Positions 1 to 22,219 of a stretch of 22,219 bases of DNA are shown in pieces. Positions within the stretch are counted from its first letter, which is position 1; every line of letters starts with the position of its first letter. This DNA is from a virus. Taxonomy: Duplodnaviria; Heunggongvirae; Uroviricota; Caudoviricetes. Below the pieces are notes generated by a model that saw only the letters and a program-made list of their open reading frames with translations, was not told the DNA's origin and searched no databases. A program made the translations under genes and the position numbers. Where the stretch lies: IMG/VR virus record IMGVR_UViG_2681813227_000011; one strand, 5' to 3'.

Positions 1-131
1 GTGCAGCATCTTGCAGAGCATGGCATTAATACATCTAAGCGCTCGTGATTATAATATAATTACCTATATTAGCTCTGACCTGACAGTTACCGTTATTTAT
101 ACAGATATCTGTCAGATTACATCTAACCAAC

Positions 132-159
132 AAAAAACCGGAGCCGGACTCCGGTTTTT
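132..159 (-). terminator. Rho-independent terminator (bidirectional-looking hairpin)
   Basis: AAAAAA-CCGGAG-ccgga-CTCCGG-TTTTT: 6-bp GC-rich stem flanked by an A-run and a T-run, immediately downstream of the minus-strand ORF ending at 174. Confidence 0.6.
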
Positions 160-173
160 GTGAATCCGTCGGG

Positions 174-443
174 TTACTTCATCCCGCCAATATTTTCCCA
201 CGTCCCGTCAGCACGCAGGATTTGCAGCGGTCTTACCACACACTGTATCTGCTTTTTATCCGCATCCAGTATCACCACCTGCGTGATTACCCTGTCCTGC
301 TCCGGGATAATGCCATTCTCATCTGACTCCAGAATGTCTGCCGGTCCCAGTCGCAGCTGTGCTGTAAGTAACTCCCCGTGTTCACGGTCATCATGCTTTC
401 CGCAACCACACAGACGCTGCATAAGTTTTTTTAGTATGTTCAT
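174..443 (-). CDS. Small hypothetical protein (~89 aa from MNILKK), paralogous to the C-terminal domain of the upstream collagen-repeat protein
   Basis: ATG lies 1 nt after the stop of ORF 445..975 (TGAcATG). Its RLGPADILESDENGIIPEQD...LD...LQILRADGTW aligns with [20 protein letters not shown]...LD...[10 protein letters not shown] of the upstream protein. The longer track ORF 174..575 probably overextends the N-terminus. Confidence 0.35.
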   Translation of the reverse strand: MNILKKLMQRLCGCGKHDDREHGELLTAQLRLGPADILESDENGIIPEQDRVITQVVILDADKKQIQCVVRPLQILRADGTWENIGGMK

Positions 444-444
444 G

Positions 445-879
445 TCATTCTCCTGTTCTGCCTGTATCACTGCCCACTTCATCCAGCCCCTTAACATCCT
501 GCCACGGCCCGTCACCAAACCTGACCTGCAAATGCCGAAACAGCCCCTGAACCTGTGTGGCATCTTTGGGGTCAAGAAAGGTCAGTCCGGTGATGAGCGC
601 ACCATCTGTATCCGGGAACCAGCCATGGCTGTTTGTCTCAATAATGCTCGCCGGCCCCAGACGAAAACGGATTTGTGTCTCCCCCGGGTCGCCCTTCGGT
701 CCCTGAGGTCCGGTTGCCCCCACCGGGCCAGCCGCACCTGTTTCTCCTTTCGGTCCCTGTGGGCCTGCCGGGCCTGCCGGGCCTGCCGGGCCTGCCGCAC
801 CGGTATCTCCCTTTGGACCCTGTGGACCTGCATTTCCCGTATAGCGCGGCGATTTTTTTGATACCGATTTGCATTTCAT
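445..879 (-). CDS. Collagen-like (Gly-X-Y) repeat protein, phage tail-fibre-like; possibly 5'-truncated
   Basis: About 20 uninterrupted G-X-Y triplets ([53 protein letters not shown]) followed by a ~70-aa globular C-terminus. The track ORF opens at 975, but 880..975 overlaps the direct-repeat region; start is uncertain (ATG near 879). Confidence 0.5.
762..797. repeat. Perfect 9-bp tandem repeat (GGGCCTGCC x4), in frame within the collagen-like gene
   Basis: Direct reading of gggcctgccgggcctgccgggcctgccgggcctgcc; encodes (AGP)n on the minus strand. Confidence 0.8.
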
Positions 880-925
880 TTGATACCGCTGAAAAACGCC
901 GATACGCAACTTATTTGATACTAAA
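855..925. repeat. Direct repeats of TTTGATAC(CG) (3 copies) in the gap between mom and the collagen-like gene; candidate prophage right-end or transposase-binding repeats
   Basis: TTTGATACCG at ~857 and ~879, TTTGATAC at ~914, plus CGATAC at ~900. Function inferred from position only. Confidence 0.3.
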
Positions 926-967
926 TCGGCGCTTTTCTTTTGAGTTTTAGAATGAGTTTTTAAGCGC

Positions 968-1705
968 TCATTCACTCTCTTTCAAACCAGTTTTAACTGT
1001 TTGTGGTTTTGGGTAAGGCTGGACTTTGAATAGCTTTGTGTTGAGGCGTTTTCTGGCCCTCTTGTTCAGAAACCGGATGTAACGAAACTGTCGGAACTTA
1101 TGAACACTGGCTCTGTCAATATTAGCCCTCAGATGTTCACCTCGTTGTCCGCCTCGTTTAATGGCATTCCTGCAAATCTCGTGATACCACTCGCCATCAA
1201 GTTCATAGAATATTGATTCATGGCTGCCTACATAATCAAAATTGCTTGCCTGATACACGACACCAAGACAGCCACAACGCTCATCTGCAAACGACTGAAC
1301 CCACTGTACCTGCGGATAAAGCTGCCTGATTAGCTTGAGCGCGTAACTGATTGCCCTTGATTCGGAGTTTCTCGGCATACAGTCATGCAGCCATAGCCGG
1401 TTAAGCTCCATATATTCTCGGTTCTGCGTACCCGTTACGACGCGTGCACCACTGTTTGGGTTAAGGGCGTAACCCCATTGCATTACGCCAACAAGTTCCC
1501 GTCCTGAAAATATGCCCAGATGAAGGTAGGAGTTATTTACGAAACGGTGGCTGTAATGTTTATTGACGATGACCAGTCTGGCCAGCCAGCAACTTATTGT
1601 CTCAACCCGCAACTCACGGGAGCCATAACCAACGATATTGTCGTTATAGCGAATAAGTTCAGGCGTGCTGATGATACGGGATGTGACTTGCTTTCTGTTC
1701 CCCAC
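968..1705 (-). CDS. mom: Mom-like DNA modification protein (anti-restriction adenine modification)
   Basis: ~230-245 aa ORF immediately downstream of and overlapping a Com-like zinc-finger ORF, positioned after the invertase as in phage Mu. Identity rests on synteny; exact start is uncertain. Confidence 0.55.
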
Positions 1706-1859
1706 GACAGGATTTCCTTGTGTATGTGGGGTGCTCTGTGGCGCTCGGAGATGTGATTTGATTGAGGGTTTTACAGCGCGGACATTTTACTTCCAGATAA
1801 CTGAAACTGGCCCGTGCCAGTAGCTTATTGCAGTGTCGGCACCGTATGTTTCGATACAT
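1659..1859 (-). CDS. com: Com-like zinc-finger translational activator of mom (start at internal MYRNIRC)
   Basis: [30 protein letters not shown]: CxxC-16-CxxC zinc finger in a ~66-aa protein resembling Mu Com as I recall it; its 3' end overlaps the mom start. Confidence 0.6.
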
Positions 1860-1904
1860 GGCCGCATAACCTCCTGCTTTGTTGTTGATGCCTTTTTCAT
1901 GCAA

Positions 1905-2082
1905 TCGATCGACAAAAACGATCGATTCGATTTGTTTAATTGATACAACAAATAGATTTAAAAGTCATCAACAATGATTCAGGGCGGTGATTATTTACTT
2001 AAAGAAAACGAAGACTTAGGTGGTGAAAACGATCATAAAATGATCATTTTATTGACTTTTTATCCAGTGAAGGTAGGATCGC
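1905..2082 (-). promoter_or_regulatory. Candidate com-mom promoter/regulatory region with clustered GATC (Dam) sites and a perfect 18-bp palindrome
   Basis: GATC at ~1907, 1920, 2031, 2042 and 2077 (5 in ~175 bp). ATAAAATGATCATTTTAT at ~2035-2052 is a perfect palindrome centred on a GATC. The region is AT-rich and lies upstream of com. Confidence 0.4.
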
Positions 2083-2345
2083 GCGTATATGTAGTATGTT
2101 TCAAATCAACAGGATACTACATAAAAGGGAAACCCAGCATAGCTGGAACTATGCTGGGCCGATTTAGACAAGTTTGCATCAATGCTTTACTTCGGGACTA
2201 CATAAATGGCGACTCAGATAGCGCGAACTATTCTGGGTCAATCTGTAAAAACTTGCATCAATGCTTCACTCTGAGCTCGTGGTGTATCCTATGATATTCC
2301 CCGGTCTCCTGTAAAGCAGAGATGCATCTGTTCAGGCAGGAGAAA

Positions 2346-2552
2346 ATGGATAAACTGACCACCGACCAAAAGTTACAGGCTGCGCGAATTGCAGCTGATA
2401 TCACAATTGCAGCAATGACATCCACCAGTTGTGTCTTTACCTCTTTTCATACAGCCGGTGATTCATCAGCTATGCAATTATGGAACGCGTGCTTTTCTGA
2501 TGTAATTCGGGCAATCAGCGAGTCAACTGACCCTCACGAACCGCAAAAATAG
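2346..2552 (+). CDS. Hypothetical small protein (68 aa from MDKLTTDQ)
   Basis: AGGAG Shine-Dalgarno 4-5 nt upstream of the ATG at ~2346; a hydrophobic stretch (IAADITIAAMTST). Converges on and overlaps the next ORF. Confidence 0.3.
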   Translation: MDKLTTDQKLQAARIAADITIAAMTSTSCVFTSFHTAGDSSAMQLWNACFSDVIRAISESTDPHEPQK

Positions 2553-2715
2553 CGCATCTTGGGGTACACAGGATCTGCATCGCTATCCACATTGCAGTGG
2601 TGAAGTTTCTATCCTGTAATGTATTTTCATCAAGTCCTGAACGTAGCGCATTGATAATTTCTGCGCTTAATATTTCCAGACCTTTGGTATCGGGCTGCTT
2701 TTTGTTCTTCTCCAT
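2515..2715 (-). CDS. Hypothetical small protein (66 aa)
   Basis: GAGG Shine-Dalgarno ~8 nt upstream of the ATG (agaggaaataatcATG). No recognisable family. Confidence 0.4.
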   Translation of the reverse strand: MEKNKKQPDTKGLEILSAEIINALRSGLDENTLQDRNFTTAMWIAMQILCTPRCAIFAVREGQLTR

Positions 2716-2789
2716 GATTATTTCCTCTGACTGGTATATACATCGCTCATGAAAATCAAACCGACAGGAGAAGCTGTCGGTTTGTATTG

Positions 2790-3035
2790 TTACATCATGG
2801 CACTGTCAGTTCCGGGCTGAACCGGCTCTGGTTGCTCTACGGGCTGAGGCTCATTCTCCGTGCTGTTTTCAGCCGGAGAATGGCCAACCATTCGGGCCAG
2901 CACTTCATCAACATATGCGTCGATTTGTGCCTCAAAATCCTTGCGAACCTGCGCCTTCAGCACGCGGTTCACTTCTTCAGAATAAAGTGCCTGTTTGACA
3001 AGCTCTTCAGTAACCGTGCCTTTAATCTCTGGCAT
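2790..3035 (-). CDS. Hypothetical acidic small protein (81 aa from MPEIKGTV)
   Basis: Strong Shine-Dalgarno (aaaaGGAGaatattcATG) at the internal start; the longer track ORF 2790..3146 is probably overextended. Acidic Pro/Glu-rich C-terminus. Confidence 0.45.
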   Translation of the reverse strand: MPEIKGTVTEELVKQALYSEEVNRVLKAQVRKDFEAQIDAYVDEVLARMVGHSPAENSTENEPQPVEQPEPVQPGTDSAMM

Positions 3036-3252
3036 GAATATTCTCCTTTTGCAGGTATATTGCCCCGTTATCAGAGCGGGTCGGGTCGTTTGGGGATGAC
3101 GGTGCCTGTGCTGTTTTACTGAGTTTTTCAGCTGCCGCATCATCAATTTTACGGCGAATATAATTTCTGATGACCTTATAACCGCCGCTCACCAGATATA
3201 ACGCACTGACCACAGCGCAGAAATAAAGCAGCATTGTATGAACGAATGTCAT
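3022..3252 (-). CDS. Hypothetical small membrane protein (76 aa, one predicted N-terminal transmembrane helix)
   Basis: LLYFCAVVSALYLVSGGY hydrophobic helix followed by a basic stretch; its stop overlaps the start of the next ORF by ~14 nt, suggesting a two-gene operon. Confidence 0.45.
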   Translation of the reverse strand: MTFVHTMLLYFCAVVSALYLVSGGYKVIRNYIRRKIDDAAAEKLSKTAQAPSSPNDPTRSDNGAIYLQKENIHARD

Positions 3253-3366
3253 ATAACCTTACCTTTGATATTGACTACATAATTCGTTATCGGGTAAAAA
3301 CATCGAAGCGACTGATAACCACTCCTTCGGGAGTATTTTTATTTTCCTTTATGGGTTAGGTAGCTC

Positions 3367-3400
3367 CCGCCAGCCATATCATGACCGGCGGGATTTTTTT
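3367..3400 (+). terminator. Hairpin plus T-run (terminator-like in plus-strand polarity)
   Basis: CCCGCC-N15-GGCGGG followed by TTTTTTT, at the 3' end of the esterase gene. Polarity is opposite to the surrounding genes, so its role is unclear. Confidence 0.3.
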
Positions 3401-5438
3401 ATTCTGTTACCGCTTTTTTCACTTCCACCACAATGCTGTCAATCAGCACCGGGTAAGTTGCATTTTTGGTGATATCCGTTACGCGGAGTTTGTCCACCGG
3501 GAAAGTTCCTACTGGTGACTGCGTCAGGGTAAACGCGGCACCATCCTGACCATCAATAACCGGAATAACCTGAAGGCTGTTATTTCCTGCAAAACGGAAG
3601 GCCAGCGTATGCCATTCATTATCAAATGCACCAAAGGTTCCCAGTTTCTGGTTATTTGTTGCCACTTTTGCATTGTGGTACATCACATTCAGGTCTTTTG
3701 CGTCTGTCTGGATGTAGAACGATGCCAGCAGATTATTCCCTGCATCCCCTGTCAGGGTGACACCCTGCGGCAGAGAGGAAACCGGCCAGTAAAGCGCCAT
3801 GACATACTGGTTTGCCACCAGGTCGCCCGGTACTTTAAAACGACAACTGATTAAACCACCATTTTTCAGCAGTTCAGCACCAGTACCGGCATCATGATCC
3901 AGATACCAGGATGATTTACCTGTTTCCTTGGTCAGTTTCATTGCCTTACCACCTGTGCCTCCTGCATCACTGATAATTTCAGCTTTACCGCCAGCCGGCT
4001 CCCAGCCCTGGGCTTTCAGATTTCCTTCTGACTCACTGACACGGTAAGACAGCAGTGTTGTGGTTACTGCTTCAGTTTCTGAAGGTGACGGCACTGGTGC
4101 TTCAGTTTCAGAAGATGGAACATCGGCTTTTACTGTGGTTCGCCCCGCATGAGTCAGAACTGCCGTGGCCAGACGGTCGGAAATAATCCCACGACGTGCC
4201 CATGAACTGAAATGGCTGGCCCGGTCCGCAGATGTCCAGGTGGCGGCACTGTTACGCCACGTTGAGCCGTAATAACCAATGGATTCAATATCCGGGTCTT
4301 CTGCCGGATTGTTGGTGGGTACATTCGCGCCATTTTCATCTGTCATTAATGGGACGAAATGAATGTTTTTATCTGTTTTATTTTTGTAGCCGTCATAGAT
4401 TGCCTGGTATGCCTGTTCGTTTTTCTGTTTCCAGAAATACGTGGTATCACCACAAATCCACGGAACGCCAGCAGCACTGCCACCGGTACACTGTTCCGCC
4501 TGTTCAGCCAGGTCTGCGCGGAATTTTTCCACCATCGCCAGAAACAGCGCAGAATGCTCCGTCGGCTTCGCATCAATATCAAACTCGCCCTGCATCCACA
4601 CCACAGCAAGCAGGCGGTTTTTCGGGTTCTTCGCCAGTGCCGCTTTTGTCCGGCTGATTAAGTCCTTATACAGCGGCTTATCCACACCCCAGCGGGCTGA
4701 GTCCTCTGAAGCACCCGTGCTGTCACTGTACGTGCCGTCAGCACCCGCCGTGAATGCAGAACCACCACGGCAGCAGGGAACCAGCAGAATCCCCGCATCT
4801 GCCGGAATAAACGGCAGCAGTTTTTTGGCAATGTGAAGCCCCTGACCCACGGTGCCATATTGCCCTTTAGCCACATCCGCTTTCGGGTGATTTTTTCCAC
4901 TCATATCCTGCACATCATGCAGACAGTGGTCGGCCAGAATGATGTCGTTATACTGACAGGCTTTACCTCCCGGCGTGACTGTACTGCGACGGGCTAACTG
5001 CATAATACGCGGTTCGGGGCGGTCATATGTCTCCGGCAGTGGCAGACCTTCACCGTAAGCCATACCGTTTGACTGACCAGCAAGAACCACCACGTAATAC
5101 CAGGAAGGGGAGCTGGAAGCAGTTTCATTTCCTGACGGACGGGTATGTGTTTCAGCATTATCCCAGTCTGACGGTTCAGCAGTACCGGCAACATCAGCAC
5201 TTAACGGAATGACCGCACCAATACCCGCTCCGGTAATTTCCACACTCGGATCACCGGATACTGGCCTTACCCACAGGCAATCCCGGGTATTAAAACTGAT
5301 GAGACAGTCAGCAAATGTCATTCCTCCTTTTGTTTCGGCCGGAGGAAAGGGAGCCTCAAGAAATGCCGCTGTACCACCGGAAACTTTAACAGTAAAGTTT
5401 CCGGGCATTGATGATAGTTGAACCCATTTGGACGTCAT
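3399..5438 (-). CDS. Prophage-type sialate O-acetylesterase (NanS-p-like): SASA/SGNH esterase domain plus C-terminal lectin-like domain
   Basis: VVVLAGQSNGMAYGEG matches the GQSN(M) catalytic-serine block of the sialate O-acetylesterase family. A Thr/Glu/Pro/Ser-rich linker and a ~200-aa C-terminal domain follow. 679 aa. Confidence 0.7.
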   Translation of the reverse strand: MTSKWVQLSSMPGNFTVKVSGGTAAFLEAPFPPAETKGGMTFADCLISFNTRDCLWVRPVSGDPSVEITGAGIGAVIPLSADVAGTAEPSDWDNAETHTRPSGNETASSSPSWYYVVVLAGQSNGMAYGEGLPLPETYDRPEPRIMQLARRSTVTPGGKACQYNDIILADHCLHDVQDMSGKNHPKADVAKGQYGTVGQGLHIAKKLLPFIPADAGILLVPCCRGGSAFTAGADGTYSDSTGASEDSARWGVDKPLYKDLISRTKAALAKNPKNRLLAVVWMQGEFDIDAKPTEHSALFLAMVEKFRADLAEQAEQCTGGSAAGVPWICGDTTYFWKQKNEQAYQAIYDGYKNKTDKNIHFVPLMTDENGANVPTNNPAEDPDIESIGYYGSTWRNSAATWTSADRASHFSSWARRGIISDRLATAVLTHAGRTTVKADVPSSETEAPVPSPSETEAVTTTLLSYRVSESEGNLKAQGWEPAGGKAEIISDAGGTGGKAMKLTKETGKSSWYLDHDAGTGAELLKNGGLISCRFKVPGDLVANQYVMALYWPVSSLPQGVTLTGDAGNNLLASFYIQTDAKDLNVMYHNAKVATNNQKLGTFGAFDNEWHTLAFRFAGNNSLQVIPVIDGQDGAAFTLTQSPVGTFPVDKLRVTDITKNATYPVLIDSIVVEVKKAVTE

Positions 5439-5537
5439 AATAATCAGCCTGTTCCTGAATAAACTGAATTATCATATCCACAGACCGATAAACGCCATTT
5501 TGCGTTAATTCAGTAAAGGCCCAACAAAGAGAGCGTC

Positions 5538-6098
5538 TTATTTTTCCGAAACGCTCGCAGGATAATAACGATAAAGGGTTGAAAGACCGATATCAAAAAT
5601 AAGTGCCACCTGTCTTCGACTGACACCCCCGGCCAGTAAACGCCCGACCTGCTCGTATTGTTCCTGCGTGAGACGGCGGGGTCTGCCGCCGGTTCGTCCC
5701 CTTTCACGGGCAGCTGCAAGACCAGCCCGTGTCCGTTCGACAATTAATTCACGCTCCATTTCTGCCAGCGCACCCATTATGTGAAAAAAGAAGCGCCCCA
5801 TGGGGGTTGACGTATCAATGTTGTCAGTAAGACTACGAAAATTTATCCCCTGTTGCTGTAATTCATCTGTCAGCGCAACAAGGTGGCGCATACTGCGCCC
5901 CAGCCTGTCCAGTTTCCAGACCATCAGCGTGTCACCGGGTTTTAGTTTCTTCAGTGCCCGCTTCAGTCCCGGCCGCTGTGTCGTTTTACCACTCATTTTG
6001 TCTTCAAAAATCTGCTCACATCCTGCACATTCCAGCGCATTTCTTTGTAAACCGGTGTTCTGGTCATTTGTTGATACGCGTATATAGCCAATCAGCAT
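5538..6098 (-). CDS. gin: Serine DNA invertase, Gin/Pin/Cin/Hin family
   Basis: N-terminus MLIGYIRVSTNDQNTGLQ (catalytic Ser in the resolvase/invertase motif), C-terminal helix-turn-helix, 186 aa, adjacent to an invertible tail-fibre segment. Confidence 0.9.
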   Translation of the reverse strand: MLIGYIRVSTNDQNTGLQRNALECAGCEQIFEDKMSGKTTQRPGLKRALKKLKPGDTLMVWKLDRLGRSMRHLVALTDELQQQGINFRSLTDNIDTSTPMGRFFFHIMGALAEMERELIVERTRAGLAAARERGRTGGRPRRLTQEQYEQVGRLLAGGVSRRQVALIFDIGLSTLYRYYPASVSEK

Positions 6099-6152
6099 GT
6101 ATTTACCTTCCTTAAAAAGAGGTGGAAAAGCCTTTTAAAGCAGATATACGGC

Positions 6153-6178
6153 ATCCCTGAAACCTCGGTTTACGGGAT
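6153..6178. other. gix-like recombination site (left, invertase-proximal)
   Basis: ATCCCTGAAACCTCGGTTTACGGGAT: inverted counterpart of the site at 7579..7604 with central AAACC-TC-GGTTT. It is ~55 bp upstream of the invertase start and directly follows an in-frame stop. Confidence 0.65.
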
Positions 6179-6532
6179 ACGGTAAACAGGGCCGCGAATG
6201 CCCTGCCATCAAACGGTACGGCTGTTGCAGCAAGCAGGCTGGCAAATGCCCGCAGAATCAATGGTGTCGCCTTTGACGGCACGCAGGATATAAACATTAC
6301 GTCAGGAATGCCGGAATCAACGGCCAATCAGCGTTATGTTACAGGGGTAAGACTGGGAGCGCAGGCATTAAGCGGCGGACTGGAATATAATTACTCCCTG
6401 TCATCAGGAAATGTGATTACCGGTTTTAAGACTGACGGAGACTGGGAAATGCGTGGTGGTGATGACCGTGTTTATTACAGACAGATACAATATTGTATTA
6501 ATGGGCATTGGGTATCCGCTGCAAGTATTTAA
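6161..6532 (+). CDS. Silent alternative tail-fibre C-terminal cassette (Sv'-like; no start of its own in this orientation)
   Basis: Plus-strand frame translates to NLGLRDTVNRAANALPS...RYVTGVRLGAQ...YYRQIQYCINGHWVSAASI, parallel to the C-terminal 127 aa of the expressed fibre (NLGLRETVNKAADALPS...RYVQNVQLGAQ...YYRPVQIYINNAWRTVSSV). A TGA sits immediately upstream. Confidence 0.7.
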   Translation, partial: NLGLRDTVNRAANALPSNGTAVAASRLANARRINGVAFDGTQDINITSGMPESTANQRYVTGVRLGAQALSGGLEYNYSLSSGNVITGFKTDGDWEMRGGDDRVYYRQIQYCINGHWVSAASI

Positions 6533-22135: not shown

Positions 22136-22219
22136 ATTGCCTCCGCATAAAGGATGAATATAAAATAAACAGGCGGTCAGTGTACGCTTAACTTGTAGTG
22201 GTCAAGTAATATTGGCCAC

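Follow-up and report, generated by a model that had tools for sequence, protein, structure and literature searches.

The window, the whole 22,219-base stretch of viral DNA that was analysed, encodes on its minus strand two overlapping genes that match the com and mom families of phage Mu (Table 1). A module of this kind had been proposed in an initial annotation, at exactly 968-1859; the strand, which was not given there, is minus. The placement of the module downstream of a cargo insertion was also correct: gin and com are about 3.7 kb apart, and the cargo fills the space between them. The gin-com gap in Mu is 94 bp.

Table 1. Features of the com-mom region, in positions of the window.
Feature	Position	Strand	Description
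Right end (attR) of the Mu-like prophage	840..967	minus	mom is the last gene before it; mom stop at 968
mom	1705..968	minus	GTG start, 245 aa; GNAT-fold, tRNA(Gly)-dependent adenine-modifying enzyme (by homology)
Translation-inhibition hairpin (predicted)	1700..1731	minus	CCCCAC (1731..1726) pairs with GUGGGG (1705..1700) and holds the mom GUG
Predicted Com-binding hairpin	1732..1743	minus	Inside the com coding region; carries CC-ACA-GAG (1741..1734)
com	1859..1659	minus	ATG start, 66 aa, stop TGA; C4 zinc-ribbon translational activator (by family)
Shine-Dalgarno of com	1870..1875	minus	AGGAGG, 10 nt before the ATG, read from the sequence
Palindrome AATCGATCG-N7-CGATCGATT	1903..1927		Contains Dam GATC sites at 1907 and 1920; the com ATG is 43 nt downstream
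Terminator-like hairpin	2131..2160	minus	13-bp stem and T-rich tail, separating the cargo genes from the com promoter region; from a consensus scan
Cargo genes	2790-5438	minus	SASA esterase/DUF6645 (NanS-p-like) gene, 679 aa, 3399..5438; DUF1378 gene; DUF826 gene
gin	5538..6098		DNA about 75% identical to Mu gin

Com and Mom proteins

Com matched the Pfam family PF10122 (Zn_ribbon_Com) with an E-value of 3.3e-12 and 46.1 bits, against a cut-off of 22.9, and belongs to that family. Mom matched PF25680 (Mom) over the full profile (1-202 of 202) with an E-value of 8.1e-77 and 257.9 bits, against a cut-off of 27.1. Both matches lie above the curated cut-offs and are far beyond chance. NCBIfam held no model that matched Mom or Com.

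Mu sequences were taken from NC_000929 (com 35768-35956, mom 35877-36602). In pairwise alignment, Com is 46% identical to Mu Com, and its four cysteines (C7, C10, C26, and C29) align with C6, C9, C26, and C29 of Mu. The C4 zinc finger described initially is therefore present, but the spacing given for it, CxxC-16-CxxC, is that of Mu; here it is CxxC-15-CxxC, which is common to many other Com lineages in viral-contig loci. RefSeq lists the product as WP_001443803.1, from a com CDS at the corresponding position of a 99.9%-identical genome. Gene com lies upstream of its target gene and overlaps it by 47 nt, in agreement with the overlap first noted between a zinc-finger ORF and an ORF of about 240 aa, which has 245 aa. 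Of 80 viral-contig loci collected for their close Mom relatives, 70 could be anchored, and each of these has a Com-like ORF before mom.

Mom is 79% identical to Mu Mom in pairwise alignment. The only solved structure that matches it is PDB 8BV8, "Methylcarbamoylase mom" (E-value 3.4e-125). Mu Mom has a GNAT fold and transfers glycine from Gly-tRNA(Gly) to adenine N6 in double-stranded DNA, followed by an on-base rearrangement (PMC13219725). Its essential residues are R111, S124, D149, and R151, and W48, H58, Y59, Y159, and W181 are important (PMC13219725). All nine are invariant, as R103, S116, D141, and R143, and as W40, H50, Y51, Y151, and W173, respectively. An HTH-like insertion that is required for activity in Mu Mom (PMC13219725) aligns without gaps and is largely identical (about 175-209 in Mu, about 167-201 here). 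Com and Mom were thus both recovered on alignment to their Mu counterparts, the check first suggested for the module, with the cysteines and key residues kept. Mom differs from Mu Mom in 21% of the sequence, in the N-terminal 15 residues and by a 12-residue C-terminal extension. The Mom family is broad, and its distant members are annotated as acetyltransferases.

The GTG at 1705 is the first ATG, GTG, or TTG after the preceding in-frame stop, so the mom ORF has no upstream start. Its context is GTG GGG AAC, versus GTG GGA AAA in Mu. The Mu record starts mom at an upstream ATG, and the GUG is codon 11 of that ORF. The physiological Mu start is the GUG, which lies within a translation-inhibition structure (PMC6483171), and Mu Mom tolerates loss of its first 10 residues (PMC13219725). 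Short plus-strand ORFs inside mom and com, such as 1520..1756 and 1665..1823, were set aside, the stretch being explained by the two strong family matches.

RNA elements in the leader

The mom initiation region was folded, as had been proposed at the outset for a Com-dependent hairpin. The translation-inhibition hairpin was found as the minimum-free-energy structure of the region, at -14.3 kcal/mol, with a conserved Com-target motif directly 5' of it. A Shine-Dalgarno-like AAGGA (1719..1715) sits in its loop. Mu folds likewise, with CCCAC and GUGGG paired around the mom GUG.

Com of Mu recognizes 5'-CC(N)2-3GAG-3' in a hairpin loop with a closing C-G pair (PMC6483171). The window sequence GAGCGCCACAGAGCAC, directly 5' of the start-codon hairpin, aligns with the Mu Com target GAAUGCCUGCGAGCAU. 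The predicted Com-binding hairpin matches the Mu 19-mer Com target GAAUGCCUGCGAGCAUCCC column for column and keeps both CC(N)3GAG and the loop-closing C-G pair. Its outermost pair is a C.A mismatch in the window lineage, and its predicted stability is low.

Nine distinct leader lineages of Mu-like com-mom were aligned and examined for covariation. Their consensus places the start-codon hairpin immediately after a small hairpin, and compensatory changes occur in four of the nine pairs. All three pairs of the Com-target hairpin show such changes. In the start-codon stem, five pairs are invariant and one covaries (C-G in five lineages, U-A in four). Compared with shuffled sequence, the leader hairpin energies gave z-scores of about -1 to -1.9, which are not significant; the start-codon hairpin of the window gave about -1.1 to -1.5. 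The argument for these elements therefore rests on conservation and covariation, not on thermodynamics.

More distant leaders are organized differently. In lineage L079 and in Pseudomonas phage JD024, an AUG start is sequestered in hairpins of unrelated sequence. In lineage L040 the Shine-Dalgarno sequence is hidden rather than the start codon. JD024 (NC_024330) has an unannotated Com-like ORF (MFDVRCGGCNRLLARASGFQHLQIKCPRC...) in a 300-nt "gap" upstream of its mom-like gene (L006, about 472-650), and a long hairpin covers the mom AUG. In Aeromonas phage pAEv1818, no Com-like CxxC..CxxC ORF was found in the 300 nt upstream of mom, and mom is located after the antiterminator Q gene.

An "EHPT" motif (Com residues about 40-47; window 1726-1741) is conserved within the otherwise variable Com tail. 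Its codons, GAG CAC CCC ACA, coincide with the Com-target motif and with the 5' arm of the start-codon stem. Since it is encoded by exactly these RNA elements, its conservation probably serves the RNA rather than the protein.

Upstream region

Mu mom is controlled by C, Dam, OxyR, and Fis (PMC3378877, PMC4461284), and Mu Pmom is strictly C-dependent (PMC4461284). The Mu counterpart of the upstream palindrome is AATCGATCGGTAATACAGATCGATT, and the two GATC sites are spaced 13 bp apart in both phages. On this alignment, the palindrome is the counterpart of the Mu Pmom Dam/OxyR control region, and it presumably binds OxyR. The GATC sites at 1907 and 1920 are homologous to Mu sites 2 and 3; Mu site 1 has no counterpart here. 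Window 1-3900 has six GATC sites, and five of these fall within 1907-2080, three of them at 2031-2080. A remnant of ATCAATTAA, the end of Mu gin, lies just upstream of the palindrome. An imperfect 24-nt inverted repeat (1873-1896 and 1960-1983) flanks the palindrome.

In a Mu-type Pmom, the C site overlaps a poor -35 element and is followed by a T-run spacer. A C box of this type (ATAACC-like) was sought as CATAACCCC with at most one mismatch; the three hits were all on the opposite strand and below chance expectation. A sigma-70 scan of the minus strand at 1860-2130 found no promoter upstream of com. No convincing motif in common emerged when the com upstream region was compared by eye with the probable I and P promoter regions of the phage. 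The palindrome lies 43 nt from the com ATG, 27 nt closer than in Mu (70 nt). With this shorter distance and no recognizable C box, the promoter geometry differs from that of Mu. The C protein of an intact relative shares just 39% identity with Mu C and may therefore recognize a different site.

The terminator-like hairpin would probably insulate com-mom from read-through. A 53-nt direct repeat (2139-2191 and 2218-2270, 77% identity) overlaps this strong hairpin.

Prophage ends, cargo, and truncation

Three copies of TTTGATAC lie in the right end, at 857-864, 879-886, and 914-921 (repeat family D3), and are probable transposase-binding sites. Gene mom is thus the last gene, beside a right end with repeats. 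This end coincides with the annotated Mu-like insertion end in the Stx phage LC727881, where similarity runs from 839/840 of the window (L001 4798/4799). In O157 genomes that carry the prophage elsewhere, the match begins at about 838-840.

The Mu-like insertion truncated a lambdoid tail-fibre gene, which lies beyond 840. ORF 445..975, which abuts mom, was considered as a downstream gene and rejected. Its first ~45 codons cross the prophage end and the rest is the truncated tail-fibre gene; with the Mu-like phage inserted in that gene at 840, the ORF is a chimera of the two. Two ORFs on the minus strand of 174-975 are of the lambdoid "phage tail fibre C-terminus" type, and one of them contains collagen-like GPAGPAG repeats.

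The cargo is shared with the intact relative (94.6% identity) and with the O157 copies and is therefore a standing feature of the phage lineage. The same trio of genes is also found in the late region of a neighbouring lambdoid prophage (L002 45467-46191), which suggests that the Mu-like phage acquired its cargo from a lambdoid phage.

The match between the window and the intact relative stops at 22197. The remaining ~22 nt (22197-22219), TGTAGTGGTCAAGTAATATTGGCCAC, form an IS3-family terminal repeat. Escherichia coli OkiPb01711, whose genome is 99.9% identical, has IS3/IS30 and lambdoid lysis genes after this IS3-family end, and no Mu genes, so the Mu-like phage lacks its early region, C, and its lysis, terminase, and portal genes. 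A tblastn search with Mu C and Mor as queries found no homologue in the 22-kb window or the 46-kb locus that matches it (L002); within these two stretches, the prophage does not encode its own activator C. The intact relative has a C homologue, the one with 39% identity to Mu C, at L004 28699-29109, about 7 kb past the break-off point. With the prophage truncated and C not in the window, expression of com-mom here is doubtful, and this copy is probably orphaned from its activator.

Distribution and variants

The chromosome of E. coli OkiPb01711 matches the whole window at 99.9%, and RefSeq annotates both coding sequences exactly. A 1.1-kb com-mom query was covered over at least 80% of its length in 226 of 5,426 complete E. 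coli genomes, usually at 99% identity or more, and com-mom DNA is 99-100% identical in 158 records. The com-mom of the window is 100% identical to the OkiPb01711 copy and 99.6% identical to copies in other genomes. The copies occupy many different chromosomal insertion sites, as expected of a transposable phage. In the closest genome, NZ_AP042673.1, the com-mom query matches two chromosomal places, which may point to a second Mu-like prophage or a fragment of one. The closest genome differs from the window by nine bases across positions 1-6200.

RefSeq product names for mom are "protein mom", "Mom family adenine methylcarbamoylation protein", and "tRNA(Gly)-dependent adenine aminoacyltransferase Mom"; the neighbouring gene is annotated as a Com family protein. 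At the corresponding position, Mom and its regulators are encoded by Mu-like phages, Sp18 among them (PMC3299994). Given this mention and the many annotated E. coli copies, the module is already known; it is an ordinary, well-characterized com-mom module of the Mu type.

A different gene follows the same leader in some genomes. In LC727881, com and the leader are 96% identical to the window up to and including GTGGGGAACA (LC727881.1 L001 4963-6214 compared with window 1692-1930). Across LC727881 and 10 complete E. coli genomes, attR, com, and the leader are 93-96% identical up to GTGGGGAACA, after which comes not mom but a 350-aa C5-cytosine methyltransferase (TIGR00675, E-value 7e-40). It begins at the same GUG as mom, and the LC727881-type leader retains the Com-target motif as well as an intact start-codon hairpin. 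The breakpoint between the mom and methyltransferase variants coincides with the 3' border of the regulatory hairpin. Among complete E. coli genomes, 226 have the mom variant and 10 the methyltransferase variant. A methyltransferase also replaces mom after com in FluMu (hin1523), Pnme1 (nma1821), and Hia5, which have N6-adenine methyltransferases, and in phage B3 (PMC3299994). One com-leader cassette placed before either Mom or a C5-cytosine methyltransferase is an E. coli example of the known right-end modularity of Mu-like phages.

Interpretation

The com-mom of the window is very likely an orthologue, preserved intact, of the com-mom operon of phage Mu. The module first proposed for this locus is upheld by the agreement of the Pfam matches, the Mu alignments, the gene order and overlap, the RNA elements, the GATC sites, and the position at the right end. 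The sequence predicts functional Com and Mom proteins. From it we infer their biochemical activity, the dependence of mom on Com and the control of the operon by C, Dam, and OxyR.

By analogy with Mu, the operon would be transcribed late, from a weak promoter that needs activator C, and the upstream GATC sites would hold the promoter off through Dam methylation and OxyR. The mom GUG would be locked in the mRNA hairpin. Com, translated first, would bind the CC-N3-GAG hairpin directly 5' of it, so that the start hairpin opens and mom is translated. Mom would then transfer glycine from Gly-tRNA(Gly) to adenine N6 in double-stranded DNA. The product would rearrange to N6-carbamoylmethyl-adenine, and many restriction enzymes would be blocked.

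Whether this copy can be expressed is a separate matter. The chance is about even that the genes are an intact but silent relic, with expression impossible after IS-mediated loss of the early and middle region with C, and with no anti-restriction capacity left. The window leaves the intact relative at 22197 for TGTAGTGGTCAAGTAATATTGGCCAC, and in OkiPb01711 IS3/IS30 and lambdoid lysis genes follow. Neither C nor Mor was found in the window or L002, a C homologue is present in the intact relative, and Mu Pmom depends strictly on C (PMC4461284). However, com-mom is identical to the OkiPb01711 copy and nearly so to the others, and neither a frameshift nor a stop interrupts it; the genes thus show no sign of decay. 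Just 22 nt of the IS lie inside the window, and the rest of the source prophage is outside its view. The second match in the closest genome could also be a Mu-like prophage that provides C in trans. Since the prophage is interrupted by an IS3-family element and lacks C, the operon is probably silent in this copy unless another Mu-like prophage supplies C. The anti-restriction capacity first suggested for the module accordingly needs a qualification: it is encoded, but it may not be expressible from this copy, with C absent from the window and the 46-kb locus. A silent copy concerns functional status and not identity, and is thus compatible with orthology to the Mu operon. That com-mom has been kept intact because it is still used, with C supplied in trans by a second Mu-like prophage and Mom modifying the DNA of co-induced prophages, is improbable. 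Such a second prophage could supply C in NZ_AP042673.1. If this were so, co-induced lambdoid or Stx-type phages of the same cell would be Mom-modified and would gain a wider host range.

Other readings concern the proteins themselves. Divergence of Mom to another chemistry or another donor (a different aminoacyl-tRNA or an acyl-CoA, for example), without the Mu modification, would fit the 21% sequence difference, the altered N-terminal 15 residues, the 12-residue C-terminal extension, and the breadth of a family whose distant members are annotated as acetyltransferases. It is nevertheless very unlikely. All nine residues identified by mutagenesis are kept, the HTH-like insertion is present, and the Mom of phage D108 also has 245 aa. 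Enzymes at 79% identity usually retain their specificity, and Mom is well inside that range. A role for Com as a DNA-binding transcriptional regulator, in place of a translational activator, is hardly credible. It comes solely from the RefSeq product name "Com family DNA-binding transcriptional regulator", which conflicts with the experimental literature on an RNA-binding translational activator. Mu Com was shown by experiment to bind RNA, with its target defined (PMC6483171), and to activate translation (PMC3378877), and the RNA target motif and start-codon hairpin are kept here and across lineages. An orthologue of the Mu operon, with Com acting on the mom leader, remains the best explanation. 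As com-mom is a classic, intensively studied phage anti-restriction system, the locus has little significance beyond its correct annotation.

Comparison with known systems

The window shares with Mu and with D108/SfMu the order gin, com, mom, and right end, and the overlap of com with mom. It also shares with Mu the key Mom residues, a C4 zinc-ribbon Com, a GUG-start hairpin after a CC-N3-GAG hairpin, and a pair of GATC sites 13 bp apart. The cysteine pairs of Com are 15 residues apart, versus 16 in Mu, and its tail is longer. The com-mom overlap of 47 nt compares with 80 nt as annotated in Mu, or about 50 nt counted from the Mu GUG. The loop of the start-codon hairpin has 20 nt, versus 11 nt in Mu. 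Upstream, two of the three Mu GATC sites are kept, at a shorter distance from com and with no recognizable C box, and Mom has its 12-aa extension at the C-terminus.

A Mu-like prophage of Shiga-toxin-producing E. coli (O157:H7 lineage), reported under the name Sp18 in strain Sakai (PMC3299994), has the same com-mom and the same cargo between gin and com as the window. Unlike the O157:H7-lineage copies, the copy in the window sits in a lambdoid tail-fibre gene and is truncated by an IS3-family element. In FluMu, Pnme1, Hia5, and B3, a com homologue and leader likewise precede the last gene at the right end; the enzyme encoded there is a methyltransferase, whereas that of the window is a genuine Mom.
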